From Spirochaetes bacterium RBG_16_49_21 (GTDB lineage Bacteria > Spirochaetota > UBA4802 > UBA5550), in NCBI GenBank assembly GCA_001829495.1, contig MIBJ01000001.1, positions 2,414-66,413 on the forward strand: DNA of 64,000 bases. Direction: 5' to 3'. Position 1 is the first letter of the stretch. The number at the start of each line of letters is the position of its first letter. The translations under genes were made by a program, and so were the position numbers. Below are positions 12,703 to 60,701 of this stretch, piece by piece. The notes below the pieces were generated by a model that was given only the letters and a program-made list of their open reading frames with translations, was not told where the DNA came from and ran no database searches.

Positions 12703-12733
12703 AGGGCTAACTTCTATCCACATCTCACACGTT

Positions 12734-16000: not shown

Positions 16001-16190
16001 GTCATTGCGAGGAGAGCCGGCGACGAAGGCCGGCGCATTTTGCACATCCTGTGCGCGCCGGCACGAAACCATCCTTGGTTTCAGCAATCTTAGTTTAAAT
16101 TAAAATTAAAGATTGCGCTGGCCAGGATGGCCGAGTGCCGCGAAGTACATGGACGTACGAGAGCGGCCTTCGCTCCGCTCGCAATGACAG
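16001..16190. repeat. Same palindromic element family (copy 2), with nested internal inverted repeats
   Basis: Arms gtcattgcgaggagagccggcgacgaagg... and ...ccttcgctccgctcgcaatgacag. Inner pairs are ccatccttgg/ccaggatgg and gcaatctt/aagattgc. Confidence 0.65.
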
Positions 16191-16240
16191 TGAGTTTTAC
16201 AATGCGTCTAACGACAAAATATCTCACCAGGAGAACAATT

Positions 16241-22380: not shown

Positions 22381-24492
22381 TCATCCGATAAGGATGCGGC
22401 TGTCAAGGGCTTTCACCCCCCGGCTCTGCTCATATACGACGACCGGGTTGATCTCGAGGTCGGTGATCCGCGGGCACTTACGGATGACCGCGCCCGCTTT
22501 AATCATCACCTCCACGAGCCCCTCGATGTCCTTGCGGACCTCGCCCCGTACGCCCATGAGGAGCGGGAACGACTTGAGCTCCTTGAGCATCTTCACGGCT
22601 TCGATGCGGTTAAAAGGGAAACCCCGGAAGGCTATATCCTTCATCACCTCCACGTAGATGCCGCCGAATCCGCACATGACGATCGGGCCGAACGACGCAT
22701 CGCGCCGCGCGCCCACGATGATCTCGACCCCCTGGGAAACCATCTCGCAGACCTCGATTCCGTCGATGTGCGCGTCCGGCTTGAATCTGCGAGAATTCTG
22801 GATAATGGCCTCATACGCGTCCACGGCCTCTTCCCGGTTCTCAATATTGAGCGCAACTCCGCCTGCGTCGCTCTTATGCAGGATGTCCCGGGACACCACC
22901 TTCATGACCAGGGGATAGCCGATATCCTCGGCGTGGCGCACCGCCTGATCAATGGTGACGGCAATCCTGCTTTGCGGAATGCTGATATTCACCGCCTTCA
23001 TGACTGCGGAGCCCTCGTTCGCGAGCAGGAAATTCCTCCCCGCGGCAAGCGCCTGGCCGATTATCCGGTCGATGGCGCCGACATCGATGTCCGCATCGTC
23101 GATCATGTCCGATTTCTCCCGCAGATACCGCTCATACCGGTGCAGCACGCCCAGGCACGACACGGACGCGTGCACATCGCCGTACACGGGAACATTCCGG
23201 CTCCTGAGCCGGTTAATCGCCTCCGCAACGGCCTCACCCCCCACGGCCGCGTAGCAGACGGGCTTGCCGGCATTCATATGGTCCCGGTACGAGCCCTCGA
23301 TCATGGGGGCAAGGCTCGCGGAATCGAAGGTCGCGGTCTCGCAATAGAGCGCGATGGTGGCGCCGATGTTCTTGTTGGTCAAGGGCACCGAAAGCGCCAG
23401 GTCGTAATCCCCGGCGTTGGCCCCGCCGGTCAGGTCCACCGGGTTTTTCGTTGATCCGAATGACGGAACAACCGGATCAAAGGCATTCTTTAATTCGGCC
23501 TGATCGTCATAGAGCTCGATCCCGAATCTCTCGCACGCGTCGGTCGCGAGCACCCCGACTCCACCCCCGTTGGTGATTATAACGCTTTTGCCTCCGCCCG
23601 GCTTCGGGCTGAAGGCGAGGAAGGCGCACCAGTTAAACGCCTCTTCGATGCTTTCGGAGCGGATCACCCCGCACTGCCTCATGACGGCGTCGAAGATCTC
23701 GTCCGTACCGGCGAGCGACCCGGTGTGCGAAGCGGCAGCCAGGGCGCCCCGCTTCGACCGGCCGGATTTGATGACCACAACCGGTTTTTTCTCGGTTACG
23801 CGCTTCAGCGCGGCGATGAGCCGCTCTCCGTCCTTAACGCCTTCAATGTACATTAAAATGACTCTGGTGCCGTCATGCCTGATCAGGTAATCCAGGAGAT
23901 CGGATTCGTCGATATCGCACTTGTTGCCGATGGAAACGATGGCGGAAAGGCCGATATTCTCCACCGCAGTTTTGCCGATAAGGGCGATCCCGAGCGCCCC
24001 GCTCTGCGTGAGGATGGCTACGCGGCCCGGTTTTATATCGGTGGCGGAGAAGGTGGAATTGAGCGACGCCTCGGATGAGTAGAGTCCGAAGATGTTCGGG
24101 CCCAGAACCCTCATGCCGTAATCGCGGGCGACCGCGACGATATTCTTCTCCTCTTCGGTGTTGCCGATCTCGGAAAAGCCGGAGGTAATGATCTGCACGA
24201 ACTTCACGCCCTTGCGGCCGCACTGCATAACCGCGTCCAGGACGAATTTGGCGGGGATCACGATTGAAGCAACGTCGATATCGCCGTTGATATCCTCTAT
24301 TTTCCCGTATACCTGACGTCCTAAAATCTCGCCGCCATGCGGGTTTACCGGAAAGACCCTGCCCGGGTATCCCCCCCGTATGATATTATAGAGAACCTTA
24401 TATCCGATCTTGTCGGTTTCATGCGAAGCTCCGATAACGGCGACGCTTTTGGGCGCAAACAGATCCCGTATTTCATTGTCATTTTTTGTCAT
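22381..24492 (-). CDS. Acetate--CoA ligase (ADP-forming), fused alpha/beta subunits (acetyl-CoA synthetase, NDP-forming)
   Basis: 703 aa. CoA-binding N-terminus (VAVIGAS...), succinyl-CoA-synthetase-like ligase-CoA domain and a C-terminal ATP-grasp domain. Confidence 0.85.
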   Translation of the reverse strand: MTKNDNEIRDLFAPKSVAVIGASHETDKIGYKVLYNIIRGGYPGRVFPVNPHGGEILGRQVYGKIEDINGDIDVASIVIPAKFVLDAVMQCGRKGVKFVQIITSGFSEIGNTEEEKNIVAVARDYGMRVLGPNIFGLYSSEASLNSTFSATDIKPGRVAILTQSGALGIALIGKTAVENIGLSAIVSIGNKCDIDESDLLDYLIRHDGTRVILMYIEGVKDGERLIAALKRVTEKKPVVVIKSGRSKRGALAAASHTGSLAGTDEIFDAVMRQCGVIRSESIEEAFNWCAFLAFSPKPGGGKSVIITNGGGVGVLATDACERFGIELYDDQAELKNAFDPVVPSFGSTKNPVDLTGGANAGDYDLALSVPLTNKNIGATIALYCETATFDSASLAPMIEGSYRDHMNAGKPVCYAAVGGEAVAEAINRLRSRNVPVYGDVHASVSCLGVLHRYERYLREKSDMIDDADIDVGAIDRIIGQALAAGRNFLLANEGSAVMKAVNISIPQSRIAVTIDQAVRHAEDIGYPLVMKVVSRDILHKSDAGGVALNIENREEAVDAYEAIIQNSRRFKPDAHIDGIEVCEMVSQGVEIIVGARRDASFGPIVMCGFGGIYVEVMKDIAFRGFPFNRIEAVKMLKELKSFPLLMGVRGEVRKDIEGLVEVMIKAGAVIRKCPRITDLEINPVVVYEQSRGVKALDSRILIG

Positions 24493-24554: not shown

Positions 24555-25628
24555 TTAACACCGGGGAATGCTGAAGTAAAAGGTCGCGTGTTTCCCGACT
24601 TCGGATTCCACCCACATCCTGCCCTGATGCTTCTCGATTATCTTTTTGCATATATACAGGCCCAGACCCGATCCTTTCACCCCCTCCGTGCCTTTCTGCC
24701 TCAGGCGGCTGAATTTTTTAAAGAGCCGCTCTTCAATATCGGCCTTGGATATTCCTACGCCCTGGTTATGTATCGAGACAATGTAATTTCCGGCGTTCTC
24801 CTCGCAGGCTACGGTTATCGGGGTTTCGGGAGCGCCGTACTTGATGGCGTTGTTGAGGAGGTTGTTGACCACGATCTTCAGGAGATTCGGATCCCCGATT
24901 ATAAAGGGCTTGGCCGGTATCTCCGCTGCGACAATGGGCATCTTTTTCAGATTTTCCCGGTATTCGGGTATATCCAGAGCCGGCTGGATGACATCGCCTG
25001 CCAGATCGATCCTCTGGGTAAAGGCCTCAAGGTTGTCGAGGTCCATCTTGGAGAGATCGATATAATTGCGGATGATATCCTCCAGATACTGGCAGTTGCG
25101 CAGAATCTTTTCAACGGTCTTCTGCTGCTCATTGTCGAGGTTTCCCAGGTAGCCCCGGTACAGGGTCTCGGCCGTGGTATGGACCGCCGAGACCGGGCTT
25201 TTCATCTCATGGGAGACGATCGCCATAAGGTCGAGCATGGCCGCATCGGAATGCTCCTCCCGCGACTTTACCGCGTTCTCAACCACGCTCTTAAGCTCCT
25301 CCTTGGTGAAGGGCTTGGGGATATAATCAAAGGCGCCCATCTTGAGCGCTTCGCGCGTATTCTCCACCGTGGCGAAGCCGGTGAAAATAATGACGGTCAC
25401 CTCGGGCTTGGTTTTTCGCAGGGTCGACAGAACCTCCATGCCGCTGAGGCCCGGCATTTTAATATCGGTTATAACGATATCGTATTCCTTTTCCCCGGCG
25501 CGTTTCAAGCCTTCGTCCCCTGAATACGCAGTGTCTATTTGATAATTTTCTTGGCCCAGTATGCGCAGACAACTCTTCAATATGATGTCTTCATCGTCAA
25601 TTATCAGTATTTTTATTTTTTTATTCAT
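24555..25628 (-). CDS. Hybrid response-regulator receiver / histidine kinase
   Basis: N-terminal receiver (ILIIDDE...DIKMPG), H-box SHEMKSPV, and HATPase N/G boxes (NNAIKYG, GSGLGL). Confidence 0.8.
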   Translation of the reverse strand: MNKKIKILIIDDEDIILKSCLRILGQENYQIDTAYSGDEGLKRAGEKEYDIVITDIKMPGLSGMEVLSTLRKTKPEVTVIIFTGFATVENTREALKMGAFDYIPKPFTKEELKSVVENAVKSREEHSDAAMLDLMAIVSHEMKSPVSAVHTTAETLYRGYLGNLDNEQQKTVEKILRNCQYLEDIIRNYIDLSKMDLDNLEAFTQRIDLAGDVIQPALDIPEYRENLKKMPIVAAEIPAKPFIIGDPNLLKIVVNNLLNNAIKYGAPETPITVACEENAGNYIVSIHNQGVGISKADIEERLFKKFSRLRQKGTEGVKGSGLGLYICKKIIEKHQGRMWVESEVGKHATFYFSIPRC

Positions 25629-25685
25629 ATTTATAACTATTCAACTATTATTTCAGAGATTTCATTTTCATTCAAGATATAAACC

Positions 25686-27665
25686 TCAAAACCTTTGCGA
25701 CTTTGCGTCTTTGCGAGAATTTTCCAAATCTTGTTGCTTAGCCATCGAAACCTCTACCGGGAACTCAATAGTAAAGGTCGTTCCCCTGCCCACCGTGCTG
25801 TCGACTTTGATCGTGCCGTTATGCCGCTGTACAATGCCGTAGGTGACCGCAAGCCCGAGACCGGTGCCCTTGCCGGTCTCCTTGGTTGTAAAAAACGGAT
25901 CAAAGATCTTGGGCAGATTTTCTTCTTTAATTCCGATTCCGGTGTCGGAAACCCTGACAACTATCTTCCGGTCGCTCTCATCATATTCGGTAGACATGGT
26001 CAGCTCGCCCCCGTCATGCATGGCGTCGGCTGCGTTGACAGCGAGGTTGTTTATGACGGATTTTATCTGGTTGCTATCAATATTAATCTCCGGAAGATTT
26101 TCCGACAATTGTTTTTTGATCTTTATATTTTGAAAATTCACGTGCTTCTCCAGTATGGAAAGGAGATCGATTATGATCCTGTTGATGTCTCCGGGCAGCT
26201 TTTCTATCTTCGTCTCGCGCGCGAAATCGAGTATTCCTTTCACGATCTCCCTGCACCGCAGGGTCTCATCGATGATCACTTTTAAATCGCACCGGCACCG
26301 CTCATCCGTAAGCTCGTCATACAGGGCGGTGCTGTAGCTTAAAACCCCGGTGAGGGGGTTGTTGATCTCATGCGCTATGCCGGAGGCGAGCCTTCCCAGA
26401 GAGGCGAGCTTCTCCGACTGGACAATCTGCATCTCCGTCTGTTCTTTGAGCTTCTTGTCCCGCTCGTCGATCGCATCGATCATCCGGTTGAAGGTGACGC
26501 CTAAATACCCCAATTCATCATGGGAAACCGGAACGATTTTCTTACTATAGTTCCCCCGCACTATCTCCTGTGACGCGGCTACCAGCGACCGGATCGGGGT
26601 TATGATACTCCGTATCAGATACACGGAAAGGGCGACGGCGACGAGCGCGGTTATAAGGGTGACCAGCAGCGCGAAAATCGTGGCGTTCCGCTTGATGATG
26701 TTGTACTTGTCCTCGAGAATTCCCACATACAGGATGCCGATGACCTTATTGTTTATATCATGGATGGGGCTATATCCCGACAGGTACCAGTTGTTGACGA
26801 CAAAGGCCTTGTCCAGCCACACCTCCCCGTGCTCGATGACCTTCCGGTACACCTCTTCGGATACCTGCGTGCCCACGGCCCGCTTCCCCCGGCTGTTTTT
26901 CACGTTGGTCGCTATGCGTAAATCGTCCATGAATATCGTAACCGTGCCTATTTCATATCCGTTGACGCTGTCGTCTTTAAAAAGGAGCTTCTTGATGCGG
27001 TCCACCAGCTCAAAGTCGTTATTGAGCATCTTGGCGCCGTAGATCACGCCGATCAGCCTGCCGCCGCTTAAAACCGGGGCTGCCGCCGCCAGGCTCATGC
27101 CGTTGGTCTCGAACATCTTATCGATTTTGCGCGCCCGGGGCGTCGGTATGACCCTGATTCCGGCCCGGTCCGCGAGCTTCCGGTCCTCACGCAGGAGGAG
27201 CTCCCGGCTGGCAATATCCGTACCGGAGCATGATTTCCTGTTCTGAAGCACGTACCTGACGAACCGATCGCCGCTTATGTCGTCGCCGTAACCGGCCGAG
27301 CCGTTCGCCCGCGCTACGACCCTGCCGGCCGCGTCGGTTATGGTCATGATATCGATATCGAGCTCCTTCCTGACCTCATTGAGCTTTTCGCTCAAGAGGG
27401 GGCGGTTGTTCTGTAAGATGGCGGTTTGCAGATACCCGAGTGAGGCAAGGTGTTTCGTGAAAAGATATATTATATTGACGCGTTTAAAGTATATGTACCG
27501 GGCGGTATTGAGGTTGCTCCGCACGTCATCGTAAGCCTGTCCCACGACATTCTTGTTGATGACGTTCCGGCTGATTATGACCGAGTTGATCCCGCTGATT
27601 ACTACAACTGACAGCAGGCTGATGACAAGCTTGGTGCTGATGTTCGCCTTAACTATTTCCTTCAT
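25686..27665 (-). CDS. Sensor histidine kinase with a periplasmic sensor domain, HAMP, HisKA and HATPase
   Basis: Two TM segments flank a ~270 aa extracytoplasmic domain. HAMP is followed by H-box AHEINNPL, then N and G boxes. Confidence 0.8.
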
Positions 27666-27689: not shown

Positions 27690-28091
27690 TCAGGTGTGTT
27701 TCGACACCTTCTCCAGCAGCGCGTCTAAATTAACCGGCTTCGTCAAAAAATCATTGACCCCCGGCAGAAAATTCTCGGAATCATCAAGGGAGAACCGGGA
27801 ATTTGTCACCTGATTGATTGCGGTGAGCATGATGATCGGCGTATTCTTGACCTCTTTGTATTTCGACATAGGCCTGCTGTTCCGTATCTGGTAGGCGAAT
27901 TCGAAGCCGGCCGTGTCCGTCTCCATCATGATATCCAGTATTATCAGGTCCGGTTTGACGGCGGATACCTTTTTCAACGCTTCCGCACCTGAATGAGCTT
28001 CTGTAACATCATATCCTTTTGAAGTCAATACTGTTTTAAGGTTTGAACAGGTATCCGTATCATCATCAACCAGCAGTATTTTTTTACCCAT
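27690..28091 (-). CDS. Single-domain response regulator receiver
   Basis: KILLVDDD...DIMME...K receiver motifs. Confidence 0.75.
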   Translation of the reverse strand: MGKKILLVDDDTDTCSNLKTVLTSKGYDVTEAHSGAEALKKVSAVKPDLIILDIMMETDTAGFEFAYQIRNSRPMSKYKEVKNTPIIMLTAINQVTNSRFSLDDSENFLPGVNDFLTKPVNLDALLEKVSKHT

Positions 28092-36235: not shown

Positions 36236-38248
36236 CTATACCTTCACAATTCTGACCGGGATGGTCGCGTCTTCCCCTCTTTTCAGCACGTCCTTGTGCT
36301 CCAAAAAAAATTTGGTGACCATATCATGTATGAAATACGCGACATACGCCGTATTCTTCTTCACCTTGTCGGTTACCTGGACCATCGTCTCCATGGAGCC
36401 GTAGGGAGATACGATCTTGACCGGGAACCGGTCGCGCACGCCGAGCTCCTGGGCGTTTTCAGGCGCCAGGGCGACATATCCCTGCGGATACAGAAGGAGG
36501 GTGGCGTTGTACTCGCGCAGCGGGATAGTGGTCTTTTTCATGAGATTGTTCTGGTGCCAGTAGTGCTGCGCCTCGCCGATGAGGAGGAGTATCGGATATT
36601 CCTCGCTCGCCCGGGGAACCCTGAAGCTCGAGTCGACCGGCGCAAACGAGATCTTTTTCGGGACCCCGTCGAGCGAAAAGCGGGCGGTTCCGTTCGGATT
36701 CTCCTTATTGCAGGGCCACTTGATCCCGTACGAGCCCTCAAGCTTCCGGTGCGAGATGCCCGCGTATGAGGGCGTGAGCCGGGCGATCTCCGCCGTCACG
36801 TCTGCCGGGGAGGCATATCCCCATTTCGCTCCCGCCTTCTCGGCTATCATGGTGTAGAGCTTCCACCCGGGTACCGTACCTTTCGACGGCTCGAGCTTTT
36901 TCTTCGACAGCTGCACGCGGCGCTCGGTATTGGTATAGGTGCCGTCGGTCTCGACGTAGGTCGCGATCGGGAGAACCACATGCGCGTAGTTGATGAAATT
37001 ATTCCGGAACGAGCCGATATAGGCGACAAAGTCCATGTCGCGTACCTCGTTCACGTTCATGATGATGGACTCGTCATGCTCGACCACGACCATGGCCTTG
37101 AGCCTTTTGCCGGCCATGAGAAGCTCATGGATCGACGCGCCCGCCTCCGCGGGGAGTTTGACGCCCCACTCCTTGTTGAATTTCTCCCGGGCAGTCGCGT
37201 CCGATAATTGCTGGAATCCGGTGAGGAGGTCGGGCGCGATCCCCATGTCATAGCTTCCCTGCAGATTGTTGATGCCGGTTATCGGATTCACGCCGCATCC
37301 CTCCCTGCCGATCTTTCCGGCCAGGAGGAAAAGGTTGTAGATATAGCCTATGGTCTCCTGATCGAAGCCCGATATGCCGGAGGAGAAAAAGACCATCGCA
37401 GTATCGGAACGCGCCAATTCGCGGCCGACCTCTTTCAAAGCGGCCAGGTCCACACCGGTCTTATCGGCTACATCGCCGTCCTTCAATGTCTTGATCGCGG
37501 ACACGAAGCCCTCGTATCCGCTGGTGTATCTCTTTATGAAATCCGCGTTGGTGAGAAATTCTTCCAGAATGACCTTTGCCATATACGCCATGGCTATCTT
37601 GTAAGAGCCGGGCCGCACCTGTAAAAAGGAGCCGGAGAGTCGGGCGATCTGCGTGTTCCGGGTGTCGAGAGTGACGAGCCGGGCGCCGGCGCGTGCGGCC
37701 TTGTGTATCTCGCTGCCGATGATCGGGTTTTGCTTGGTTATGTCGATGCCCGCTACCAGGATGAATCGGGCCTTTGATATCTCCTCAAGGGAGCCGAGCA
37801 TGCCTGCCATGCCGGTTCCCCGGTGCATCACGTTCAGGCTTCTCCGGTGGCCGGGGTCCGAATCCAGGCTGATATTGTTCGTGTTGAACACGGCCCGCGC
37901 GAGCTTCATCAATAAAAAATTTTCTTCATTGGATGAGCGGGGGGACGCGAGGAATCCGACTTCGTCGGCCGCGTTTTTTTTGCGCTTTGCCAGGTTGTCC
38001 ACGAGAACGCCGATCGCTTCATCATAGGTCGCCTCCACGAGCTTGCCGTTTTTTCTGACGAGCGGGGTTTGTATCTTTTCATTCGTATTCAACAGCTCAT
38101 GGATATTCCATCCCCTCACGCAGAGCCTGCCCTTGCTGACCGGATGCCCCTGGAGGGGGTAAACGCCGCGCACCGAGTCTCCCCTCACGTCCAGGAGATG
38201 CCCGCATCCCGTGCCGCAGAATGTGCAAATGCCGGATTTATAATTCAT
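36236..38248 (-). CDS. FdhF-family molybdopterin-oxidoreductase homolog that lacks the Sec/Cys Mo ligand and catalytic Arg; probably non-canonical and NuoG-like
   Basis: The N-terminal CTFCGTGCG...C 4Fe-4S motif is colinear with E. coli FdhF. At the U140 position the sequence reads DSDPGHRRS (Gly); at R333 it reads GVNPITGINNLQG (Thr). Confidence 0.75.
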   Translation of the reverse strand: MNYKSGICTFCGTGCGHLLDVRGDSVRGVYPLQGHPVSKGRLCVRGWNIHELLNTNEKIQTPLVRKNGKLVEATYDEAIGVLVDNLAKRKKNAADEVGFLASPRSSNEENFLLMKLARAVFNTNNISLDSDPGHRRSLNVMHRGTGMAGMLGSLEEISKARFILVAGIDITKQNPIIGSEIHKAARAGARLVTLDTRNTQIARLSGSFLQVRPGSYKIAMAYMAKVILEEFLTNADFIKRYTSGYEGFVSAIKTLKDGDVADKTGVDLAALKEVGRELARSDTAMVFFSSGISGFDQETIGYIYNLFLLAGKIGREGCGVNPITGINNLQGSYDMGIAPDLLTGFQQLSDATAREKFNKEWGVKLPAEAGASIHELLMAGKRLKAMVVVEHDESIIMNVNEVRDMDFVAYIGSFRNNFINYAHVVLPIATYVETDGTYTNTERRVQLSKKKLEPSKGTVPGWKLYTMIAEKAGAKWGYASPADVTAEIARLTPSYAGISHRKLEGSYGIKWPCNKENPNGTARFSLDGVPKKISFAPVDSSFRVPRASEEYPILLLIGEAQHYWHQNNLMKKTTIPLREYNATLLLYPQGYVALAPENAQELGVRDRFPVKIVSPYGSMETMVQVTDKVKKNTAYVAYFIHDMVTKFFLEHKDVLKRGEDATIPVRIVKV

Positions 38249-38489: not shown

Positions 38490-39161
38490 TTATTTGTTCT
38501 GCATGATCACCCACTGGATGGCGTATTTGGCGAGATCGGACGAATTTTTAAGTTTGAGCTTCTCTTTTATATTTTTCTTGTGGCTCTCCACGGTGTATAT
38601 GCTCAGATTGAGCTTCTTCGCCATCTCCTTGGTGCTGAAGCCGTTGCCGATGAGCTGGAAGATCTCGAATTCCCTGTTGCTTAAATTCTCAACCGAGATG
38701 CCGATCGTGTCCGCCGAGCCGCGGACCAGCTTGTCGATGATTTTTTTAGATATCTTTTCGCTCAGGTAGAGCTCGTCGCTCAGGATCGTTCTGATGGCAT
38801 TGATGATGTTCTTCGACGCCACCTCCTTCATGATGTAGCCGCGCGCGCCCGCGCGGATGGCGCGCTCCGCGTACACGGACTCATCGTGCATGGTGAGAAC
38901 CAGGGTCTTAATGTCGGGAAAGCGCTCGTTCAGGGACTTGATAAGCTCTATGCCGTTGACGTTCCCGGCCAGAGTGATGTCCACGATAACCACATCCGGC
39001 TTGTCGCGGTTGATGAGATCGATCGCGTCGTGCGCGGTGGAGGCCTCGCCGCAGACCTTCAGGTCTTCCTCAAGCTCGATCACCTGCTTGATCCCCTGCC
39101 GGAGAAGCGGGTGATCGTCCACGATCAGGATTTTCTTGATGATACTTGAATTTTCAGCCAT
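38490..39161 (-). CDS. NarL/LuxR-family response regulator (receiver plus HTH_LuxR)
   Basis: Receiver KILIVDDHP...D and a C-terminal LuxR HTH (EFEIFQLIGNGFSTKEMAKKLNLSIYTVESH). The start at the internal Met is uncertain. Confidence 0.75.
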   Translation of the reverse strand: MAENSSIIKKILIVDDHPLLRQGIKQVIELEEDLKVCGEASTAHDAIDLINRDKPDVVIVDITLAGNVNGIELIKSLNERFPDIKTLVLTMHDESVYAERAIRAGARGYIMKEVASKNIINAIRTILSDELYLSEKISKKIIDKLVRGSADTIGISVENLSNREFEIFQLIGNGFSTKEMAKKLNLSIYTVESHKKNIKEKLKLKNSSDLAKYAIQWVIMQNK

Positions 39162-39315
39162 CTTTTGTTTATCGCTGTAAATAGAATCCTGAGGATCAAG
39201 ATCATGCATCATTATGGATACCGCTCCGCGCAACGCGCGGTAATTCGTCAAAAAAGGTTCGATAATATATTACAGCCCGTGCAATTGGGCGTCAATACCC
39301 GGATTTTGTTATTTT

Positions 39316-40406: not shown

Positions 40407-40926
40407 TTACACAAGCTCATACCCGGCTGTAAGGGCATTTTTATTAATGGCTATTAGTTTTTTATTCCCCTTCAGCGCAACGGCTAAAGCATCGATCAGG
40501 GTCTGCAGGTTGACCAGATTGCTCTTTTTTATGAAAGCCCCGAGCATTATCATATTAGCCGATTTCACGCTCCCCATATCCTCGGCAGCCGCATTAGCGG
40601 GAACCTGCACGATCTCTATATCGCCGCGAAGGAGCGGCTCTTTAATCAAGGAGGAATTCAAAAAGAAGATGCCGCCGGACTGGATCTTATTCTGGAATTT
40701 GATCATTGAGGGCTGGTTCAGGGCAACGACAAAAGCAGGCGAGGACGCCACCGGAGAGGCGATCTCCTCATCGGACACGGATACCGTGCAATTGGCGGTG
40801 CCGCCGCGCACCTCGGCGCCGTAAGCGGGCAGGTACGTCACGTATCTTCCTTCCATCATGGCGGCCTGTGCCAGGTTAAGCCCCATGGACATCACCCCCT
40901 GGCCGCCGAAGCCTGCAAAAACCGTT

Positions 40927-40937
<11 letters not shown>
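40407..40937 (-). CDS. 2-oxoacid:ferredoxin oxidoreductase gamma subunit
   Basis: FAGFGGQGV motif typical of POR/KOR gamma. Confidence 0.8.
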
Positions 40938-41682
<745 letters not shown>

Positions 41683-42753
41683 CTATTGGTTCAAACCCTT
41701 TTGATGATATACACGCGTGATAACGCGCAGAACTTCGGTCGGATTGGGTATTACGCCTCCCGGTCTGCCGTAGAAGGACACGTCTCCGCCGCCTTCCAAT
41801 GCCAGCCTTACATCATCGATCATCTGGCCCATGTTCATTTCAAAATCCAGGAAATACTTCGCCCGCTTGGATAATTCTTTAAGCTGTTCCGACGGGAACG
41901 GCCAGAGGGTGACGGGTCTGAACATGCCCACGCGCAGCCCCAGAGCGCGGGCCTGTTTGATCGCGCCTTTTGCAATGCGGGCCGCGATGCCGAAAGCAGT
42001 AACAACGAGCGCCGCGTCTTCCGTCAGGTAATTCTCGCACGAGGCCTCTTGCTTCTGGATCAACTGATACCGCCTGAACAGGCTCCAGTTGACCTCCTCG
42101 AGCTCGGCGGGGTTTGAGGTAAAGGTGCGGACGAACCTGCTGTGTCGCCCCTTTGCGCCCCTGAGCGCGCCGGCTCTGACCGGGAGCGCCGACGGCGCTT
42201 CATGTTTGAATTCCACCGGCTCCATCATCTGGCCCAGCATCCCGTCGCCGAGGATGATGACCGGGATCAGGTATTTATCAGCCAGCTCAAAGGCCCGGCG
42301 GGTCAGGTCCGCCAATTCCTGCACCGACGCCGGCGCAAGCACGATGGTCCGGTAGTCCCCATGCCCTCCGCCGCGCGTGGACTGGAAATAATCGGATTGG
42401 GAGGCGGAAATACTGCCCAGCCCTGGTCCTCCCCGGGACATGTTTACGATGACCGAAGGGAGCTGGCAGGCGGCAAGATACGAGATGCCCTCCTGCTTCA
42501 AGCTGATCCCGGGACTGGATGAAGAAGTCATGGCTCTGGCTCCGGCGACGCTTGCCCCATAGACCATGTTGACGGCTGAAATCTCGCTTTCCGCCTGGAT
42601 GAAAGCACACCCCTCCCTCCGGGAGAGATGAGCCGCCATGTATTCAGTCAATTCATTCTGGGGGGTGATCGGGTAGCCGAAATAGCATCGGCACCCCGCC
42701 CTGATGGCGGCCTCGGCGATAGCGGCGTTTCCGGTCATCAATATTTTAGCCAC
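41683..42753 (-). CDS. 2-oxoacid:ferredoxin oxidoreductase alpha subunit
   Basis: N-terminal MTGNAAIAEAAIRAGCRCYFGYPITP, POR/KOR-alpha-like. Confidence 0.85.
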   Translation of the reverse strand: MAKILMTGNAAIAEAAIRAGCRCYFGYPITPQNELTEYMAAHLSRREGCAFIQAESEISAVNMVYGASVAGARAMTSSSSPGISLKQEGISYLAACQLPSVIVNMSRGGPGLGSISASQSDYFQSTRGGGHGDYRTIVLAPASVQELADLTRRAFELADKYLIPVIILGDGMLGQMMEPVEFKHEAPSALPVRAGALRGAKGRHSRFVRTFTSNPAELEEVNWSLFRRYQLIQKQEASCENYLTEDAALVVTAFGIAARIAKGAIKQARALGLRVGMFRPVTLWPFPSEQLKELSKRAKYFLDFEMNMGQMIDDVRLALEGGGDVSFYGRPGGVIPNPTEVLRVITRVYHQKGLNQ

Positions 42754-43258: not shown

Positions 43259-44614
43259 ATGGAAAAAATAAAACATATATCGATATTAACCTTAATAATT
43301 ACTCTTGGCCTCGTATCCTGCTCTGACTCCGAAAACAGAATAAGCCCTCTGCTCAGGAATACGACGGTCATCCTCAACACCGGGCTTCCGCCTGAAAGCG
43401 CCTCGGCCGATAATTCCCTCCTTGACCGCATACGCCGCCTTTTCGTCCGCGACGCCGTTGCCCAGAGCGCGCCCGCCTCCTTCAGCTCGATCCGGGTGCG
43501 CGTCACCGGCGCCGACTTCGGCGTTATCGAGCAGACATTCGCCGGAGGCGGATTGATATCGCTCTCCGTTCCGTCGGGAAGCTTCAGGCAGTTCGAGGTG
43601 ACCGCATTTACCGCTCCGGGCGATCCGAATCCGGCAGTTACCTTTCGCGGAACTGCGGCAGCGAACCTGCCGGCCGGAGAGACGGTGAGCGTGCCGGTAT
43701 TGATGAGACTCAGTGAGATAAGAATCATCGTGCCGGATTTTTTGAACGGCCGCATAATAGTGATGGATGATATGAGCGGCGCAGGATGGACGGTCATCGA
43801 CGGCGGCAAGCTCGGACTCGATACGATTCAACCGTTCGATGTGGACTTCGACGCACGGGGAAGAATATACATAGCGGACCAGGTGAGCAACGGCATCATA
43901 CGGATCGACAACATCCTGGGCGATAATATGAAAAATTTTGAATCGATTAGTCGTGATGAAGGCACCCTGACGGCGGTTGCCGTGGACCACATCAATGATC
44001 GCGTGTATTATGCGACTTCTGCAACTTTATATCAAAGCAATCTGGACGGCTCGGACAAACAGCCAAAATCAATCCCCGGTTTTGTAAGCATTAACGGGAT
44101 CGACGTGGCTCCGGATGGAATGCTCTATATCGCGGGAACCGATATATCCAAAGAATCCGCCGCGGTTTTTAAATACGACCCGAACGGAAGCGGGGCAATA
44201 GTAGGCCAGTATAGTAATGGCGCTCTTCTCTATGCCGCTTCAGACGTCATGGCGCGCGGGCAGAATATTTATGTCATAAACAGCTCCGGCGGCATAGACA
44301 ATATGATACTGCAATTGGCAGTTGATTCGAGTAATATATTCACCCTCGTGAATAATTACGGCAGCCCCCCGGTAGATCTGGTAACAGATTATACTAAAAT
44401 ACCGGGTCTGTTCTATGGCCCGCAGCATTTCATCGGCGGCGGAAACGGCGCCTTGATAATAATCGATGAGGGATCATTCATATTCAGCGATTTTCTCACC
44501 CCGGTTGACCGGCTCATAGCGATACAGGACATTCAGGGAAACGGGTGGACGACGTATGGTCAGAGTGGAACAGAAACCGGCATGTTTGATTTTTACCAAA
44601 CTATAAGTTTTTGA
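43259..44614 (+). CDS. Lipoprotein with a beta-propeller (NHL / SMP-30-like) repeat region
   Basis: Signal peptide with lipobox LGLVSC, then repeated Gly/Asp-rich blades (YIADQVSNGIIRID, LYIAGTD). Confidence 0.6.
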   Translation: MEKIKHISILTLIITLGLVSCSDSENRISPLLRNTTVILNTGLPPESASADNSLLDRIRRLFVRDAVAQSAPASFSSIRVRVTGADFGVIEQTFAGGGLISLSVPSGSFRQFEVTAFTAPGDPNPAVTFRGTAAANLPAGETVSVPVLMRLSEIRIIVPDFLNGRIIVMDDMSGAGWTVIDGGKLGLDTIQPFDVDFDARGRIYIADQVSNGIIRIDNILGDNMKNFESISRDEGTLTAVAVDHINDRVYYATSATLYQSNLDGSDKQPKSIPGFVSINGIDVAPDGMLYIAGTDISKESAAVFKYDPNGSGAIVGQYSNGALLYAASDVMARGQNIYVINSSGGIDNMILQLAVDSSNIFTLVNNYGSPPVDLVTDYTKIPGLFYGPQHFIGGGNGALIIIDEGSFIFSDFLTPVDRLIAIQDIQGNGWTTYGQSGTETGMFDFYQTISF

Positions 44615-46208: not shown

Positions 46209-46520
46209 ATGATCAAAAGGGGAAGATTCTGGCTGGCTCTTTTTACCGTGCGCAACGACATGATGGACAGGCTCCACCCACGCCCCCGGCTGAAATCGCT
46301 TATGGCGAAGCTCCCCCGCTTCACCTGGCCGGAACCGAAGCCTTACGGTTTCGTGATCGCCCTGGACGAAAGGGGTAAAATCATCGGATCCCTTCAGGAC
46401 CCGACCGGAAAACACCTTTACGAGATCACGTCCGCGCAGGAGTATGATGGATATCTCTACCTCGGAAGCCTCCACTCGGACCGGATCGGCAGGTACCGGC
46501 TCGAAAATCAGAGGTTTTGA
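46209..46520 (+). pseudogene. Strictosidine-synthase-like (SSL) protein, C-terminal ~100 aa remnant only
   Basis: Matches the C-terminal blade of the SSL family (FWLALF...GKIIGSLQDPTGKHLYEITSAQEYDGYLYLGS). No N-terminal 200+ aa is present; the start is a gene-internal Met. Confidence 0.5.
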
Positions 46521-47596
46521 TTCAGCGGGCAGCGTATGCCCGGCTTTTCGCCGGGTACGAAGCATTGCAGGCAGGCAGTGCATTCGACCACATCCCCGCT
46601 TCTCCCCGCGAGGGATTTGGTAACGAGCTCGGGATCGGCGATAAGAGCCCGGCCTATCGCCACCATATCGGCCATTCCCTCGTCAATCGCGCGCTCGGCC
46701 TGTTCCGGCCGAAGAACACCGCCGACGGCGATGACCGGCAGCTTCACCCGCTTCTTTACCTCGCCCGCGAGCCTGATGATAGTGCCCTTCCCCGCCTCTT
46801 CAAGCATCCGGACGCCGGTGTCGATCCCCCCGGCGGAAACATGCACTATATCAAGGCCCTTTTCCATAAACATGTTGATCATGTCCGCGCATTCTTCAAC
46901 GGTCATGCCGTTATCAACGTACTCCTCGGCGCTTATCCGGAGACCCAGCACGAAATCCTCTCCCACCTTCCCGCGCGTTCTCTCCAGCACCTCCATAACG
47001 ATACGCGCCCGGTTCTGCGTGCTCCCGCCGTATCGGTCCTTTCTCAGATTGGCCGCCGGAGACATGAACTGGTTCAGAAGAAAGCTGTGGGTGCCGTGAA
47101 ACTCCACCATCCGGGCGCCCGCATTTTTTGCGATTTCCGCCGCGTGCGCGAATTGACCGACGATATCCTCGATTTCACCGATCGAGAGCTCCCGGGGAAC
47201 GTTCTTCGACGCGGGCGAGGCAACGGCTGAGGGGCCGACCAGGTCGCCGCCCGCCAGAGCGGGCTTCATGACCCGGCCCCCGTGATTAAGCTGGACCGCC
47301 GGAATGGAGCCGGCCGCACCTATGGCGTCGAAAAGCTTTGCCGCGGACCCGGTTTTCCCCTTGTCGCAGAGGCAAAACGCGTGGTCGCCGAGACGGGAAT
47401 AAGCCGAAATGCCGGTAGCCCCCACGATCGTGAGGCCGACGCCGTTCCCGGCTATCCTCTTATAGAATCTTATGAGCCGCTCCGTAGCCTCGCCGTCGGC
47501 GGATGCGAAGTTCGTCTGAACCGGTGAGAAGACGATCCGGTTCGGAAATGTCGTTTTTTTCACGGTAATCGGGTGTAAAAGTCTTTCATATTTCAT
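46508..47596 (-). CDS. NADH:flavin oxidoreductase, Old Yellow Enzyme family
   Basis: OYE/TIM-barrel motifs (PNRIVFSPVQT, AVQLNHGGR, EFHGTHSFLLNQF, RYGGS). Confidence 0.75.
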   Translation of the reverse strand: MKYERLLHPITVKKTTFPNRIVFSPVQTNFASADGEATERLIRFYKRIAGNGVGLTIVGATGISAYSRLGDHAFCLCDKGKTGSAAKLFDAIGAAGSIPAVQLNHGGRVMKPALAGGDLVGPSAVASPASKNVPRELSIGEIEDIVGQFAHAAEIAKNAGARMVEFHGTHSFLLNQFMSPAANLRKDRYGGSTQNRARIVMEVLERTRGKVGEDFVLGLRISAEEYVDNGMTVEECADMINMFMEKGLDIVHVSAGGIDTGVRMLEEAGKGTIIRLAGEVKKRVKLPVIAVGGVLRPEQAERAIDEGMADMVAIGRALIADPELVTKSLAGRSGDVVECTACLQCFVPGEKPGIRCPLNQNL

Positions 47597-47625
47597 AGAG
47601 CCCTCCTAATGAGGTTGTCTATTAA

Positions 47626-47765
47626 CCCCCTAAATCCCCGAAAGGGGGACTTTACCTCACCCCCAGTCCCTCTCCAAATTGGAGAGGAGAGCTTATAATT
47701 AAGCTTTATGCCCCCCTTCTCTTATTGAGGAAAAGGGGGGAAGGGGGGATGAGGTCAGGGGGATT
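47626..47765. repeat. GC-rich nested palindromic element, copy D; it also contains the CCCCTAAATCCCC-GGGGGACTT motif
   Basis: Contains cccctaaatccccgaaagggggactt, then cctcaccccc...ccctctccaaattggagagg, then cccccttctcttattgaggaaaagggggg...ggatgaggtca. Confidence 0.6.
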
Positions 47766-47801
47766 TTTAGACACTCCCAACTAAACTAAAAAGGCAATAA
47801 A

Positions 47802-49334
47802 TCAGAACAGGTCATTGGGATCCGCCCATGTTCCGAAGTACTGGTAATGCTCAGGCGGAAAAGCCTTCTGCAGGCCGGTATAGGTGGCCCGGGCAAGGGA
47901 TATGCCTTTGCGGGTGCGGTACAGGCCTGCAAGGCCCTGCCCCTCCAGTATCTCCAGGTATTTCACCAGATCCGCGTCCGAGATATCAAGCCATTCCTTG
48001 ATATCCTCCATGGTCATGTGAAGGCCGGGATTGATCCGGTAATTCTCTGCAAGTACGGCGAGCACATCTGCTTCATTTCTGCCCGGCTTCCGGGGCAGCG
48101 GCTTGCCGAGCGGAAGCGGCATATTTATATCGGGATCGATAACCCTCTGCGGAACCTTGAGGTCGTTTTTCAGGTCCCGCACGCCCTGGCGGTAGATGAT
48201 CAGCTTCAATATCTCCGAGGTCCCGGCCGCGATCTGCGCGTGCTTGGCGTCGCGCATGATTCGTTCCACAGGATAAATCTTCATGACGCCGTTGCCGCCC
48301 ATGCACTGCACGGCATCGAGAGCCGTCACCATGGTGGAATCGCTGGCGAACATCTTGGAGATTGCGGCCTCGACCGGCACGTCCTTACCAAGGTCCGCGC
48401 AGTACGCTCCATAGTAAACGATCAGCCTGCTCAGATAAAGCTTCCAGATCATGTCCGCGAGCTTGAACTGGTTGGTGGCGATTTCGCATATAGGGCGGCC
48501 GAACTGCAGGCGCCTTTCAAGGTGCTGCTGGGTGTAGCGGATGCATTCGCGCTGCGGGCCGAGGGTCGGCGCAGCGTTGAGGATCCTCTCCACATTGAGA
48601 CCGCTCATCATGATCTTCCAGCCCTCCCCTTCCTCGCCCAGGCGGTTGGATACCGGCACTTTGGCATTATCGAGACTCAAATAACAATTATACAGGCCGT
48701 CATAGCCCATCGTATCATTGACCTTTTCGATGTGAAAACCGGGCGTTCCCTTTTCCACCACAAAAGCGCTCAGGTGCGTATACGCCTTCCGGTCCTCCGG
48801 CTTCGAGCTTGTCAGAAAATAGCACATGTACAGGTCCGCGGCAGCGGCGACCGTCTGGTAGCGTTTTTTGCCATTAATGATATAGTAATCGCCCTCGCGC
48901 ACCGCCGTACTCTCAATTCCCGCGACATCGGAACCCGCATACGGCTCGGTCATGGTTATGCAGCCGATAAGCTCGCCCTTGTTTATCCGGGGCAGCCACC
49001 TCTGCTTCTGCTCTTCGTTCCCGTTGTGCACGATCTGCGTCGCGCTCCCGAACATGGTGGTTCCGAGAGGGGTGTGGACGACCCCGGCGCGGGACGTCTC
49101 CTCAATGATGATGGCGGCTCCGGTGACGCCCCATTCTTCGGCACGGCCGCCGTATTTCTTCGGGATGAGCGTGCCGAACCAGCCTTTGGTGGCAATCTGC
49201 TTCACTCCCTCCCAGGGAAATTTCTTCTTTAAGACGTCGCGTTCACCCAACGGGATTAAAACCTCGTCGGTGAACTTCTTGGCGTCCTCGGCAAGCTTTA
49301 TCTGCGCTTCGCTCCACCAGGGAAATTTTTCCAT
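47802..49334 (-). CDS. Acyl-CoA dehydrogenase with a ~125 aa C-terminal extension (possible winged-helix-like domain)
   Basis: ACAD core (TEPYAGSDVAG...YRQGVRDL) plus an extra C-terminal segment (...EDIKEWLDISDADLVKYLEILEGQGLAGLYRTRKGISLARATYTGL...). Confidence 0.75.
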   Translation of the reverse strand: MEKFPWWSEAQIKLAEDAKKFTDEVLIPLGERDVLKKKFPWEGVKQIATKGWFGTLIPKKYGGRAEEWGVTGAAIIIEETSRAGVVHTPLGTTMFGSATQIVHNGNEEQKQRWLPRINKGELIGCITMTEPYAGSDVAGIESTAVREGDYYIINGKKRYQTVAAAADLYMCYFLTSSKPEDRKAYTHLSAFVVEKGTPGFHIEKVNDTMGYDGLYNCYLSLDNAKVPVSNRLGEEGEGWKIMMSGLNVERILNAAPTLGPQRECIRYTQQHLERRLQFGRPICEIATNQFKLADMIWKLYLSRLIVYYGAYCADLGKDVPVEAAISKMFASDSTMVTALDAVQCMGGNGVMKIYPVERIMRDAKHAQIAAGTSEILKLIIYRQGVRDLKNDLKVPQRVIDPDINMPLPLGKPLPRKPGRNEADVLAVLAENYRINPGLHMTMEDIKEWLDISDADLVKYLEILEGQGLAGLYRTRKGISLARATYTGLQKAFPPEHYQYFGTWADPNDLF

Positions 49335-49366
49335 ATTTTTATCCTCCTTTTTTTAAATGAACCAGA

Positions 49367-49496
49367 GACGACCTCACCCGCGCTCCTGGCTCCGCCGGGA
49401 GCGAACAGGAGGTTCGCCTGCAAGCATGAACCAGGAGGGTTCAATAAAGCTTGCCATTGGGACATCCTGTCCGGCAGGTGCCGGGGGGTGAGGTCG
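49367..49496. repeat. GC-rich nested palindromic element, copy E
   Basis: Outer arms gacgacctcacccg ... ccggggggtgaggtcg. Inner hairpins are gctccgccgggagc and gcgaacaggaggttcgc. Confidence 0.6.
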
Positions 49497-49642
49497 CCTT
49501 TGTGAGAATATAACGCGAATTTTTAGATAACTCCGGAAAATATCAATTATAATCAAATTATACCAGCGAGTCTAGTATTTTCTGTAAAAGATTTTTAATA
49601 AGGATAGCCGACCAGCGATATTATGGAGCCACGGCACTATCA

Positions 49643-50818
49643 TTACCTCCCGAACGCGCTTATGCCGGTGATATCCATTCCCAAAATGAGCGTGTGGATG
49701 TGGTCCGTGCCCTGGTACGTGTATACTGATTCGATGTTGGCCATGTGGCGCATGGGAGAGGAATCGAGCGAAATACCGTTCGCGCCCATAAGCTCCCGCG
49801 CGGTCCGCGCGCACATGCGCGCGATCTTGATGTTGTTCTTTTTAGCCATGGATATCTGGCCGTGCATTGCCTTTCCCTCGTCCATGAGCCGCCCCAGACG
49901 GTATGCCAAAAGCTGGGCCTTGGTGATCTCGATGAGCATGGTCACCAGCTTGTCCTGCACGAGCTGGTATGAGGCGATCGGCGCACCGAACTGAACCCGC
50001 TCCAGGGAATACCTGAGCGCGGTCTCGTAGCAGTCGATGGCTGCCCCCACTGCTCCCCAGGATATGCCGTAGCGCGCGTGGTTGAGGCAGGCGAACGTCG
50101 CCTTTATTCCCGTGGCCTCGGGCAGCACGTTTTCCTCGGGAACCCTGCAATCCACGAAGGCGAGCTCGCCCACGTCGCCGGCCCGCATGGAGCCCTTATG
50201 CTTTTGAAAGGATTGTGTGAAGCCCTCCTGCCCCCGTTCAACGATGAATCCCTGTATACCGTGGTCGGTCTTCGCCCAGACCACCGCCATATCAGCCAGG
50301 CTCGCCTCGCTGATCCACTGCTTGGTGCCGTTCAGGATCCAATGCTTCCCGTCCTTTTTCGCCACGGTCTCCAGGGAAGACACGTCCGAGCCGCAGTTCG
50401 GTTCCGTAAGGCCGAAGCAGCCGATCGCCTCGCCGCTCGCCAGCGCCGGGAGCCATTTTTTCTTCTGCTCTTCCGTCCCAAACTTATAGAGCGGCGTCAT
50501 CACCAGGCCCGACTGGACCTCCACGTAGCTTCGAAGCGAGCTGTCGACCCGCTCGACCTCCTGGCAGATGATCCCGAGATCCACGTAGCTTGCGCCCGGG
50601 CATCCGTACTTCTGCGGAAGGTCGGCGCCGATGAGCCCCATCCTCCCCATCTTGGGCGCGATCTTCCTCATGTCAAGGGGCTCTTCCGTATGAAAGGCCT
50701 CGAGCACCAGCGGCCGTATCTCCTTATCGAGAAACCTTCTTACCGATTCTTTAAGTACCCGCTCCTCATTCGTGAATTGATCGTATATTTTGTAATAGTC
50801 GGTATCGTTCACTGGCAT
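49643..50818 (-). CDS. Glutaryl-CoA dehydrogenase-like acyl-CoA dehydrogenase
   Basis: GcdH-like N-terminus (DYYKIYDQFTNEER), LTEPNCGSD, and C-terminal HTLILGMDITGISAF. The ATG at 50818 has an aaggaga RBS. Confidence 0.7.
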   Translation of the reverse strand: MPVNDTDYYKIYDQFTNEERVLKESVRRFLDKEIRPLVLEAFHTEEPLDMRKIAPKMGRMGLIGADLPQKYGCPGASYVDLGIICQEVERVDSSLRSYVEVQSGLVMTPLYKFGTEEQKKKWLPALASGEAIGCFGLTEPNCGSDVSSLETVAKKDGKHWILNGTKQWISEASLADMAVVWAKTDHGIQGFIVERGQEGFTQSFQKHKGSMRAGDVGELAFVDCRVPEENVLPEATGIKATFACLNHARYGISWGAVGAAIDCYETALRYSLERVQFGAPIASYQLVQDKLVTMLIEITKAQLLAYRLGRLMDEGKAMHGQISMAKKNNIKIARMCARTARELMGANGISLDSSPMRHMANIESVYTYQGTDHIHTLILGMDITGISAFGR

Positions 50819-50868
50819 GATCTTCTCCTTAAAAATCCCCCCATCCCCCGGAGAGGGGCTAATAGTAG

Positions 50869-54338: not shown

Positions 54339-54412
54339 AGCTCAATCCTTTCTTGCTTTTAAATTATCCCCTTATCTCTTAAGATCTCCCTATCTCCTTA
54401 TCTTACGCTTTT

Positions 54413-54970: not shown

Positions 54971-55001
54971 CTGCTTGCTCCCATTATATGAATATATGAA
55001 A

Positions 55002-55841: not shown

Positions 55842-55866
55842 GACCTAATGCTCCTTGAATAACAGG

Positions 55867-57321: not shown

Positions 57322-57333
57322 GGTATTTTTCCC

Positions 57334-58209: not shown

Positions 58210-58220
58210 GTATCATTTCC

Positions 58221-59393: not shown

Positions 59394-59414
59394 GTCTCCG
59401 TCATCCTTGAATCG

Positions 59415-60665: not shown

Positions 60666-60701
60666 TTATTTCTCCTTACAATACATATTCGCATTTTGCA
60701 G

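Follow-up and report, generated by a model that had tools for sequence, protein, structure and literature searches.

The described systems closest to the locus reported here are formate hydrogenlyase-1 (FHL-1) of Escherichia coli (FdhH-HycBCDEFG; PDB 7z0s/7z0t), in which the formate dehydrogenase (FDH) FdhH and HycB form the electron-input module of a membrane hydrogenase, NuoG/Nqo3, whose C-terminal domain is derived from an FDH, and the beta and gamma subunits of sulfhydrogenase I of Pyrococcus furiosus (group 3b) together with AsrA/AsrB of anaerobic sulfite reductase. The present analysis concerns a gene whose operon shares features with all of these, found in a stretch of 64,000 nucleotides from Spirochaetes bacterium RBG_16_49_21 (contig MIBJ01000001.1, positions 2,414 to 66,413; hereafter, the window, in whose numbering all positions are given). 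The product of this gene, a 670-aa open reading frame (ORF) at 36236..38248 of the minus strand, is called MopB* in this report. MopB* is an FdhF-derived protein that lacks the equivalents of Sec140, Arg333, and Lys44 of E. coli FdhF and keeps the cysteines of the N-terminal [4Fe-4S] cluster, and its gene is the first of a nine-gene operon with a sulfhydrogenase-type beta/gamma pair and an FHL-type hydrogenase. We consider it probable that MopB* is a non-catalytic Fe-S adaptor, most likely free of the cofactor, in a hydrogenase that is derived from FHL and coupled to NAD(P)(H).

The ORF of MopB* starts with the ATG at 38248, which is preceded by a GGAGG-like ribosome-binding site (RBS), and runs without an internal stop, in agreement with the statement of the first-pass annotation of this DNA that no in-frame TGA is present. 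In the BLASTP alignment, MopB* and E. coli FdhF were 29% identical over 669 columns (E = 7e-87); the FdhF reference sequence agrees with PDB 1aa6_A at all 715 positions except X140 (selenocysteine, Sec). MopB* is identical to a protein predicted in the metagenome-derived genome of the source bacterium. The FdhF-like character and the colinearity with E. coli FdhF that had been claimed for the protein were thus borne out, with residues 119-178 aligned to FdhF free of gaps, and the two segments quoted at that time were found exactly (ARAVFNTNNISLDSDPGHRRSL at residues 117-138 and GVNPITGINNLQG at residues 319-331). In this alignment, G133 takes the position of Sec140 and H134 that of His141, and further on T324 takes the position of Arg333 and I326 that of Gln335. 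The placement of these residues was identical in the phmmer alignment of MopB* to the F420-dependent FDH 9t1s_L, its best solved relative (E = 3.6e-99). Both alignments thus have Gly, not Cys or Sec, at the Mo-coordinating position, with the conserved His (H134) beside it, and Thr instead of the catalytic Arg333. Six Cys are present in the whole protein (positions 8, 11, 15, 43, 318, and 513), of which the first four constitute the [4Fe-4S] motif of the MopB family. As had also been noted, no Cys in this list lies within 25 residues of position 133. Note that the Lys44 of FdhF, a residue that in FdhH sits between the pterin and the [4Fe-4S] cluster, is replaced by Arg45 in MopB*, a change absent from the first-pass annotation, which also gave neither the strand nor the operon.

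The same pattern was found among the homologues. Among 114 full-length homologues sharing 51-81% identity, Gly occupies position 133 in 111, His position 134 in 109, Arg position 135 in 111, and Thr or Ala position 324 in 110; because the pattern is common to these 114 proteins, the substitutions are not sequencing noise. The four cluster Cys were kept across the 114 homologues and in 33/33 operon-linked sequences, and the mean column identity within the clade was 66% (66-sequence alignment). MopB* is evidently maintained by purifying selection. Tree reconstruction (neighbor joining (NJ) with Kimura distances, 672 columns, 100 bootstrap replicates) gave two clades, A (that of the query) and its sister B, with bootstrap values of 100/100 for A, for B, and for A+B. 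The active sites were compared at the codon level, with TGA taken as U. All operon-linked proteins have C-x-R-G-W at the site of Lys44 (Lys to Arg in 33/33), and the active site reads S[DE]xGH...P[IV][TA]GI in clade A and DHGTGVY...ALTE[HQ] in clade B, in which His141 is gone and Tyr or Phe occupies the Sec/Cys position. All 54 true FDHs of the comparison have C-x-K-G, CARL[U/C]H, and PLRGQNNVQG, that is, Sec/Cys, His, Arg, and Lys are kept.

The extent of degeneration was evaluated with an alignment of E. coli FdhF and 86 sequences taken from species-representative genomes and other contigs, in which the 54 true FDHs were defined by CARL[U/C]H and PLRGQNNVQG, and a column conserved in at least 90% of these 54 was regarded as FDH-invariant (n = 161). 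Clade A kept 69/161 of the FDH-invariant columns and clade B 93/161. The columns lost in both clades include K44, C136, A137, R138, U140, N176, H181, P203, T300, G305, R333, and Q335, and also G402, E403, D409, D478, R581, Y586, T592, R631, K632, N662, and K679 (E. coli FdhF numbering). Against the domain models, MopB* scored 46 bits with PF04879 (Fe4S4; true FDHs, 37-62), 125 bits with PF00384 (true FDHs, 233-337), and 31 bits with PF01568, the last match covering only profile positions 25-78 of 110 (true FDHs, 95-119 bits over the full length); each of the three matches was above the gathering threshold. With TIGR01591 (Fdh-alpha), the score was 444.5 bits, below the curated cutoff of 666.25. 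The residue losses, the 69/161 retained columns, the TIGR01591 score below the cutoff, and the weak scores of the pterin-domain Pfam models all argue, as the first-pass annotation had proposed, that MopB* is not an FDH; as far as sequence comparison can tell, the retained-column count and the partial PF01568 match also point to the loss of the bound bis-pyranopterin cofactor. When 20 selected core columns were scored in 150 representatives, the true FDHs kept 17.4 on average and the query 0, a score that serves for illustration only and is partly circular because the columns were picked for their loss in the query clades. The AlphaFold2 model of MopB* (66-sequence alignment) had a pLDDT of 90.8 and a pTM of 0.92, and in Foldseek this model shows a complete four-domain fold of the FDH/Nap type, with a TMq of 0.88-0.90 to R. 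aestuarii FDH, R. capsulatus FDH, B. subtilis ForCE, E. coli FdhH, and D. desulfuricans NapA; an FDH-type fold is thus predicted for MopB*.

The gene for MopB* is the first of nine tightly packed, partly overlapping genes on the minus strand, in the order MopB*-HydB-HydG-HycI-HyfB-HycE-HycD-HycF-HycG (Table 1). The HydB/AsrA-like protein has CxxCxxCxxxC motifs at C242-252 and C322-332, plus further Cys, and its sole PDB match was the beta subunit of P. furiosus sulfhydrogenase I (9nez_B, 2.5e-36); the HydG/AsrB-like flavoprotein has the [2Fe-2S] cysteines C246, C251, C254, and C262, and its top PDB match was the gamma subunit of the same enzyme (9nez_C, 7.7e-54). All scores of these two proteins with the NCBIfam models were below the cutoffs (score/cutoff: ShyB, 166/690; AsrA, 146/323; HydG, 188/650; AsrB, 184/289). 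The NiFe motifs of the HycE-like protein are intact (L1, RICGICGSVH at 232; L2, DPCFSCTDR at 523), and its top PDB match was E. coli HycE (7z0s_E, 3.7e-126). The hydrogenase thus appears, judging from its genes, to be functional and of the FHL type, with a group 4a-like core. Neither a gene for a HycB-type ferredoxin nor space for one was found in the operon, and none was found in the loci L001, L003, L004, and L006. The single-domain CheY-like response regulator that follows HycG as a tenth gene is conserved in clade A operons at 61-79% identity (L001, L003, L004, L008-L012, and L016-L018), and a Cache-domain sensor kinase is located near the operon in L001, L003, and L004, in the first of these together with a hybrid kinase.

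Table 1. Features of the window discussed in this study (window coordinates)
Feature	Position	Strand	Remarks
MopB* (FdhF-derived subunit, 670 aa)	36236..38248	-	without Sec/Cys140, Arg333, and Lys44 equivalents; [4Fe-4S] cysteines kept
MopB* codons 8-43	38120..38227	-	[4Fe-4S] motif C8-x2-C11-x3-C15...C43, then R45 (FdhF Lys44 position)
MopB* codons 117-138	37835..37900	-	ARAVFNTNNISLDSDPGHRRSL; G133 = Sec/Cys140 position, H134 = His141
MopB* codons 319-331	37256..37294	-	GVNPITGINNLQG; T324 = Arg333 position, I326 = Gln335
HydB/AsrA-like Fe-S subunit, 351 aa	35178..36233	-	Pfam Fer4_22
HydG/AsrB-like flavoprotein, 280 aa	34335..35177	-	FAD_binding_6 + NAD_binding_1 + PyrK-type [2Fe-2S]
HycI-type hydrogenase maturation endopeptidase, 168 aa	33829..34335	-	counted from the ATG overlapping the HydG stop
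HyfB/HycC/NuoL-like antiporter-type membrane subunit, 623 aa	31968..33839	-	Proton_antipo_M
HycE-like fused NuoC-NuoD [NiFe] large subunit, 560 aa	30268..31950	-	L1 + L2 motifs, C-terminal extension
HycD/NuoH-like membrane subunit, 298 aa	29368..30264	-	NADHdh
HycF/NuoI-like 2x[4Fe-4S] subunit, 181 aa	28799..29344	-	
HycG/NuoB-like hydrogenase small subunit, 176 aa	28266..28796	-	Oxidored_q6
Single-domain CheY-like response regulator	27690..28091	-	tenth gene, directly after HycG
Cache-domain sensor histidine kinase (659 aa) + hybrid kinase/receiver (357 aa)	24555..27665	-	
LuxR/GerE-type response regulator	38490..39251	-	directly upstream of the operon
2-oxoacid:ferredoxin oxidoreductase	40407-42753	-	
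ADP-forming acetyl-CoA synthetase	22381-24492	-	
Succinate dehydrogenase/fumarate reductase flavoprotein set	4513-6249	+	one of two sets
Succinate dehydrogenase/fumarate reductase flavoprotein set	51585-53528	-	one of two sets

The distribution of the operon was investigated in one genome per GTDB species, with the best 80 loci retained, and in the contigs of homologues; for synteny, ten proteins of the window were compared by BLAST with every ORF of these loci. In the contigs of homologues with 51%, 42%, 38%, and 36% identity, all nine genes recur with their order unchanged, and the response regulator is present in three of the four. HydB-HydG-HycI-HyfB-HycE-HycD-HycF-HycG was found downstream of the gene, as far as the contig reaches, at every one of these loci with a MopB protein that lacks the catalytic triad (27/27), and this gene order is held at 32-81% identity. 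The 27 loci, all of which come from metagenome-assembled genomes (MAGs) of at least eight phyla, belong to Spirochaetota, Aminicenantes/Saccharicenans, Acidobacteriota/Terriglobia, Verrucomicrobia, Lentisphaerota, Chthonomonadales (Armatimonadota), Nitrospirota, and Thermodesulfobacteriota. The constant presence in one operon of a diaphorase pair of the NAD(P)H type and a complex-I-like group 4 hydrogenase favors one of the options left by the first-pass annotation, namely a NuoG-like electron-transfer or scaffold subunit. The full operon was found at none of the 54 loci of true Sec/Cys FDHs, among which the partial exceptions were one true FHL with a Sec-FdhF (L085) and three loci with HydB/HydG-like genes only. 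The latter are two Clostridium MAGs (L034 and L040, approximately 9900-13945), in which a Sec-FdhF is followed by a fused HydB-HydG ORF of approximately 640 aa, and the cultured isolate Photobacterium ganghwense JCM 12487 (L070:9887-14031), in which a Cys-FdhF is followed by HydB-like and HydG-like genes; no hydrogenase genes were found within approximately 10 kb on each side of FdhF in these three loci. They may encode uncharacterised soluble NAD(P)+-dependent FDHs and represent the catalytic ancestry of the MopB*-beta-gamma module.

Several variants of the locus were observed. The diverged ligand-less proteins P0128, P0133, P0140, and P0169 (32-34% identity) have at least the MopB*-HydB start of the operon, with the Fer4_22 gene next to them, and P0140 is also accompanied by HydG, HycI, and antiporter-like genes. 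Some operons of clade B and of more diverged members differ in their antiporter genes. L091:7125-10784 encodes two antiporter-like subunits, and its MopB* gene is directly preceded by hypA and a cobW/HypB-like gene; three verrucomicrobial loci (L021, L027, and L030) have two Proton_antipo_M subunits instead of one, or a spacing suggestive of that. A fusion ORF of MopB* and HydB in L021:9989-13138 (Verrucomicrobia) was rejected as a sign of physical association; it is probably an artefact of a frameshift or indel, since the junction looks out of frame and several genes of the contig are split. Separately, 54 of 138 full-length FDH-like representatives at 28-33% identity are without both the Cys/Sec and the Arg333 equivalents (for example, P0148, P0165, P0168, P0178, P0181, P0187, and P0194), many of them being approximately 890-910 aa in length with NuoG-like N-terminal extensions; ligand-less homologues of FDH are, on this count, common and heterogeneous.

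As for the origin of the module, the true FDHs nearest to A+B in the NJ tree were L070, then L085 with E. coli FdhF, and then L034 with L040. Since these are FHL-type FdhFs and FdhFs with HydB/HydG next to them, the tree suggests a soluble FdhF-beta-gamma ancestor of the MopB* module, and the simplest history is a single catalytic loss in an FdhF lineage that was already tied to beta/gamma, to an FHL-type hydrogenase, or to both. A wider proposal, which we regard as possible and put forward tentatively, is that the operon encodes a widespread ion-translocating NAD(P)H:proton (in reverse, H2:NAD(P)+) oxidoreductase that arose when a soluble NAD(P)+-dependent FDH of the FdhF-beta-gamma type docked on an FHL-type hydrogenase, after which the Mo site died. 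Under this tentative proposal, the process presumed to have given rise to NuoG would have taken place twice, independently, and the complex would be an extant counterpart of the transition from hydrogenlyase to complex I.

The mechanism that we propose for the adaptor is as follows. MopB* would be a descendant of FdhH that has lost formate oxidation and most probably the Mo/W-bis-pyranopterin and has kept the N-terminal [4Fe-4S] cluster. It would belong to a membrane complex of eight subunits, matured by its own HycI protease, in which HycE, HycG, HycF, and HycD together with the HyfB/HycC-like subunit form the hydrogenase core, and MopB* with beta/gamma forms an electron-input module in place of FdhH-HycB. 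Electrons would pass from NAD(P)H, the presumed partner, to FAD and the [2Fe-2S] cluster of gamma, to the [4Fe-4S] clusters of beta, and then through HycF and HycG to the NiFe site, along a putative reversible path with coupling to the antiporter-like membrane arm. The cluster of MopB* could lie in line or be a side cluster like N7 of NuoG, and the main role of the protein would be structural, that of an anchor between beta/gamma and the hydrogenase. Overall, the complex would catalyze NAD(P)H + H+ <-> NAD(P)+ + H2, and the partial pressure of H2 and the membrane potential would decide which way the reaction runs.

Several points weigh against this reading, some of which favor another explanation. 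The step from NAD(P)H to H2 is endergonic by about +18 kJ/mol under standard conditions, so that the physiological direction is not fixed; calculated from standard potentials, it becomes favorable below roughly 60 Pa H2, and the membrane arm could therefore use the membrane potential to drive H2 evolution or conserve energy in H2 uptake. The assembly of MopB* with the hydrogenase is proposed from synteny, and the sister of A+B received a support of 15-39/100 for any one candidate in the NJ tree, which is weak. With a TMq of 0.69 to mycobacterial NuoG, the MopB* model is nearer to the true FDHs. The presence of Gly or Ala in place of the ligand residue would not alone rule out a pterin cofactor, and in arsenite oxidase Mo is bound with no protein ligand. 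Many of the replaced positions are strongly conserved in clade A (for example, G133-H134-R135 and D390-H391-D392), which could mean a new ligand site instead of a filled cavity. Many of the lost positions (T112, N176, P203, Q335, G402/E403, D478, R581, Y586, N662, and K679) are putative contacts to the two pterin guanine dinucleotides, and a literature search found no published list of the pterin contacts of FdhH. As an alternative, MopB* might still hold a Mo/W-bis-pyranopterin, with no protein ligand or, in clade A, with the nearby Asp/Glu/Ser (S130 and D131), and act on a substrate other than formate, the electrons leaving through beta/gamma to the hydrogenase, to NAD(P)+, or to both. The full four-domain FDH fold predicted with high confidence, the conservation of His134, S130, and D/E131 in clade A (114-homologue alignment), the many replaced positions that are invariant within the clade as in a working site, and the approximately 43-58% of FDH-invariant columns that remain are consistent with this explanation. 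We nevertheless consider it unlikely, because the candidate ligands and His134 are absent in clade B and in other diverged members with the same operon (for example, GTGVY, GQEE, and AYRA), Lys44 is replaced in all members, columns 402, 403, 478, and 679 are replaced in both clades, in part by bulkier residues (G402 to R, E403 to Y/H), and PF01568 is matched partially with about one third of the normal score. The suggestion of the first-pass annotation that Asp or Ser of DSDPG may serve as an alternative Mo ligand was weakened for the same reason: these residues are kept only in the Spirochaetota/Aminicenantes clade, and we rejected them as a ligand because the sister clade with the same operon reads GTGVY, a segment that offers neither an acidic or Ser candidate nor His141.

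A second explanation takes MopB*-beta-gamma to be a separate soluble NAD(P)H-linked oxidoreductase with ferredoxin, polysulfide, or another acceptor, which is merely co-transcribed with a hydrogenase that is itself fed by ferredoxin like Ech or Mbh. The loci L034, L040, and L070, which have FdhF with HydB/HydG-like genes and no hydrogenase genes within approximately 10 kb, indicate that an FdhF-beta-gamma trimer can stand alone, and genes for a 2-oxoacid:ferredoxin oxidoreductase are located nearby in the window. Against this, the genes follow a strict order with translational coupling, gamma is directly followed by HycI and the genes of the hydrogenase at 27/27 loci, and the catalytic loss in MopB* coincides exactly with the association with the hydrogenase. 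Moreover, FHL-type hydrogenases need a HycB-like connector and none is encoded, so that something in the operon must feed HycF. A separate enzyme therefore seems to us improbable, to about the same degree as a retained cofactor. The lost catalytic residues would also be expected of a functionless, decaying remnant of an FHL fdhF gene; this explanation is effectively refuted by conservation, since the ORF, with its RBS, is uninterrupted, many columns are invariant among the more than 114 full-length homologues (51-81% identity), the clade is monophyletic over many phyla with a conserved operon position, and the structure prediction is confident. We thus retain the non-catalytic adaptor as the probable function of MopB*.

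The rest of the window is devoted to central carbon metabolism and is dense in genes of the tricarboxylic acid (TCA) cycle (552-14304, plus strand; 46508-63254, minus strand). The TCA-type genes encode aconitase, malate dehydrogenase, 2-oxoglutarate dehydrogenase E1/E2/E3, citrate synthase, class I fumarase, and succinyl-CoA ligase, and a malic enzyme and two acyl-CoA dehydrogenases are also encoded in the window; many of its metabolic enzymes are producers of NAD(P)H. A 451-aa ORF at 43259-44614 (plus strand) had no Pfam match at E <= 0.001. A 526-aa protein of the HpaB family (16127-17707, plus strand), that is, the family of 4-hydroxyphenylacetate 3-hydroxylase and 4-hydroxybutyryl-CoA dehydratase, was found in an otherwise anaerobic-looking context.

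Homologues of MopB* are labelled in the databases as 'formate dehydrogenase', 'YjgC', or 'molybdopterin-dependent oxidoreductase', and at least one metagenome study reads a group 4 hydrogenase of an Aminicenantes bin, possibly that of the present operon, as a formate hydrogenlyase. If the Mo site is dead, inferences of H2 production from formate would be wrong for Spirochaetota, Aminicenantes, Verrucomicrobiota, Acidobacteriota, and other groups of anoxic sediments. If the proposed function is correct, fermenters and syntrophs could dump or gain the reducing power of NAD(P)H as H2 independently of ferredoxin and of electron confurcation, possibly with the membrane potential shifting the balance, and an FDH module would have been turned, for a second time and independently, into a non-catalytic scaffold on a complex-I-like machine. 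The less degenerate clade B and the possible catalytic ancestors (the FdhF-HydB-HydG loci of Photobacterium and Clostridium) are extant and can be compared. The multi-phylum complex marked by MopB*, apparently an FHL-type hydrogenase rewired to NAD(P)H, bears on anaerobic physiology, on the annotation of MAGs, and on the evolution of complex I.

Compared with the known systems, the operon shares with E. coli FHL-1 the fused NuoC-NuoD large subunit, HycG, HycF, HycD, a single HycC/HyfB-like subunit, and HycI, and MopB* itself is of FdhF-type descent, has the same predicted fold, and is placed in the tree nearest to FHL-type FdhF. It differs from FHL-1 in that HycB is lacking, Sec140, Arg333, Lys44, and many other invariant residues of FdhH are replaced in MopB*, and a sulfhydrogenase-type beta/gamma pair is inserted between the MopB* gene and the hydrogenase genes; formate is thus an improbable substrate. 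The beta and gamma subunits have the same domains and cluster motifs as those of P. furiosus sulfhydrogenase I and as AsrA/AsrB, and their partners are different, being a membrane group 4 hydrogenase and MopB* instead of the group 3b alpha/delta subunits or the sirohaem protein AsrC. A related arrangement was described in Saganbacteria RX5A, in which the gene for an FdhH-like molybdopterin protein, which has one 4Fe-4S domain and was unclassifiable as an FDH, lies beside a group 4 hydrogenase and genes resembling asrA, asrB, and cooF; the authors called this region 'enigmatic' and tentatively read it as an oxidoreductase module, leaving its function undetermined (Matheus Carnevali et al. 2019, PMC6349859). 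By its description, that region differs from the MopB* operon in having Mrp-type antiporter subunits and a CooF-like gene and in being Mbh-like and not FHL-like, and in the parts of that account available to us neither the absence of a Mo ligand, of Arg, and of Lys nor the analogy with NuoG was found (PMC6349859). Our literature search found no characterisation of the present complex, that account being the only description of something related. With the C-terminal domain of NuoG/Nqo3, MopB* has in common its descent from FDH, the loss of the metal ligand, and the N-terminal [4Fe-4S] cluster that is kept (N7 in NuoG), as well as genes for an NAD(P)H flavoprotein adjoining its own in a complex-I-like gene set, a setting that is known here from the genes. 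The absence of the cofactor is established for NuoG, and for MopB* we infer it from the comparisons described above. Unlike NuoG, MopB* is a stand-alone protein of independent origin that starts at the Fe4S4 domain, with no N-terminal 2Fe-2S/4Fe-4S domains; its score with TIGR01973 is 119 bits against a cutoff of 470, and its partner flavoprotein is of the FNR/PyrK type (FAD), not of the NuoF type (FMN). Other MopB scaffolds free of the cofactor are HydA of the bifurcating NiFe-HydABCSL (7t2r), NfnC (9bov), StnC (8oh5), and QrcB, and chains of such scaffolds were weaker matches of MopB* in the sequence and fold searches. Taken alone, the MopB* protein is one more dead MopB scaffold, a known phenomenon; it is in the operon, with its FHL-type hydrogenase and its beta/gamma pair, that the locus departs from the systems described.

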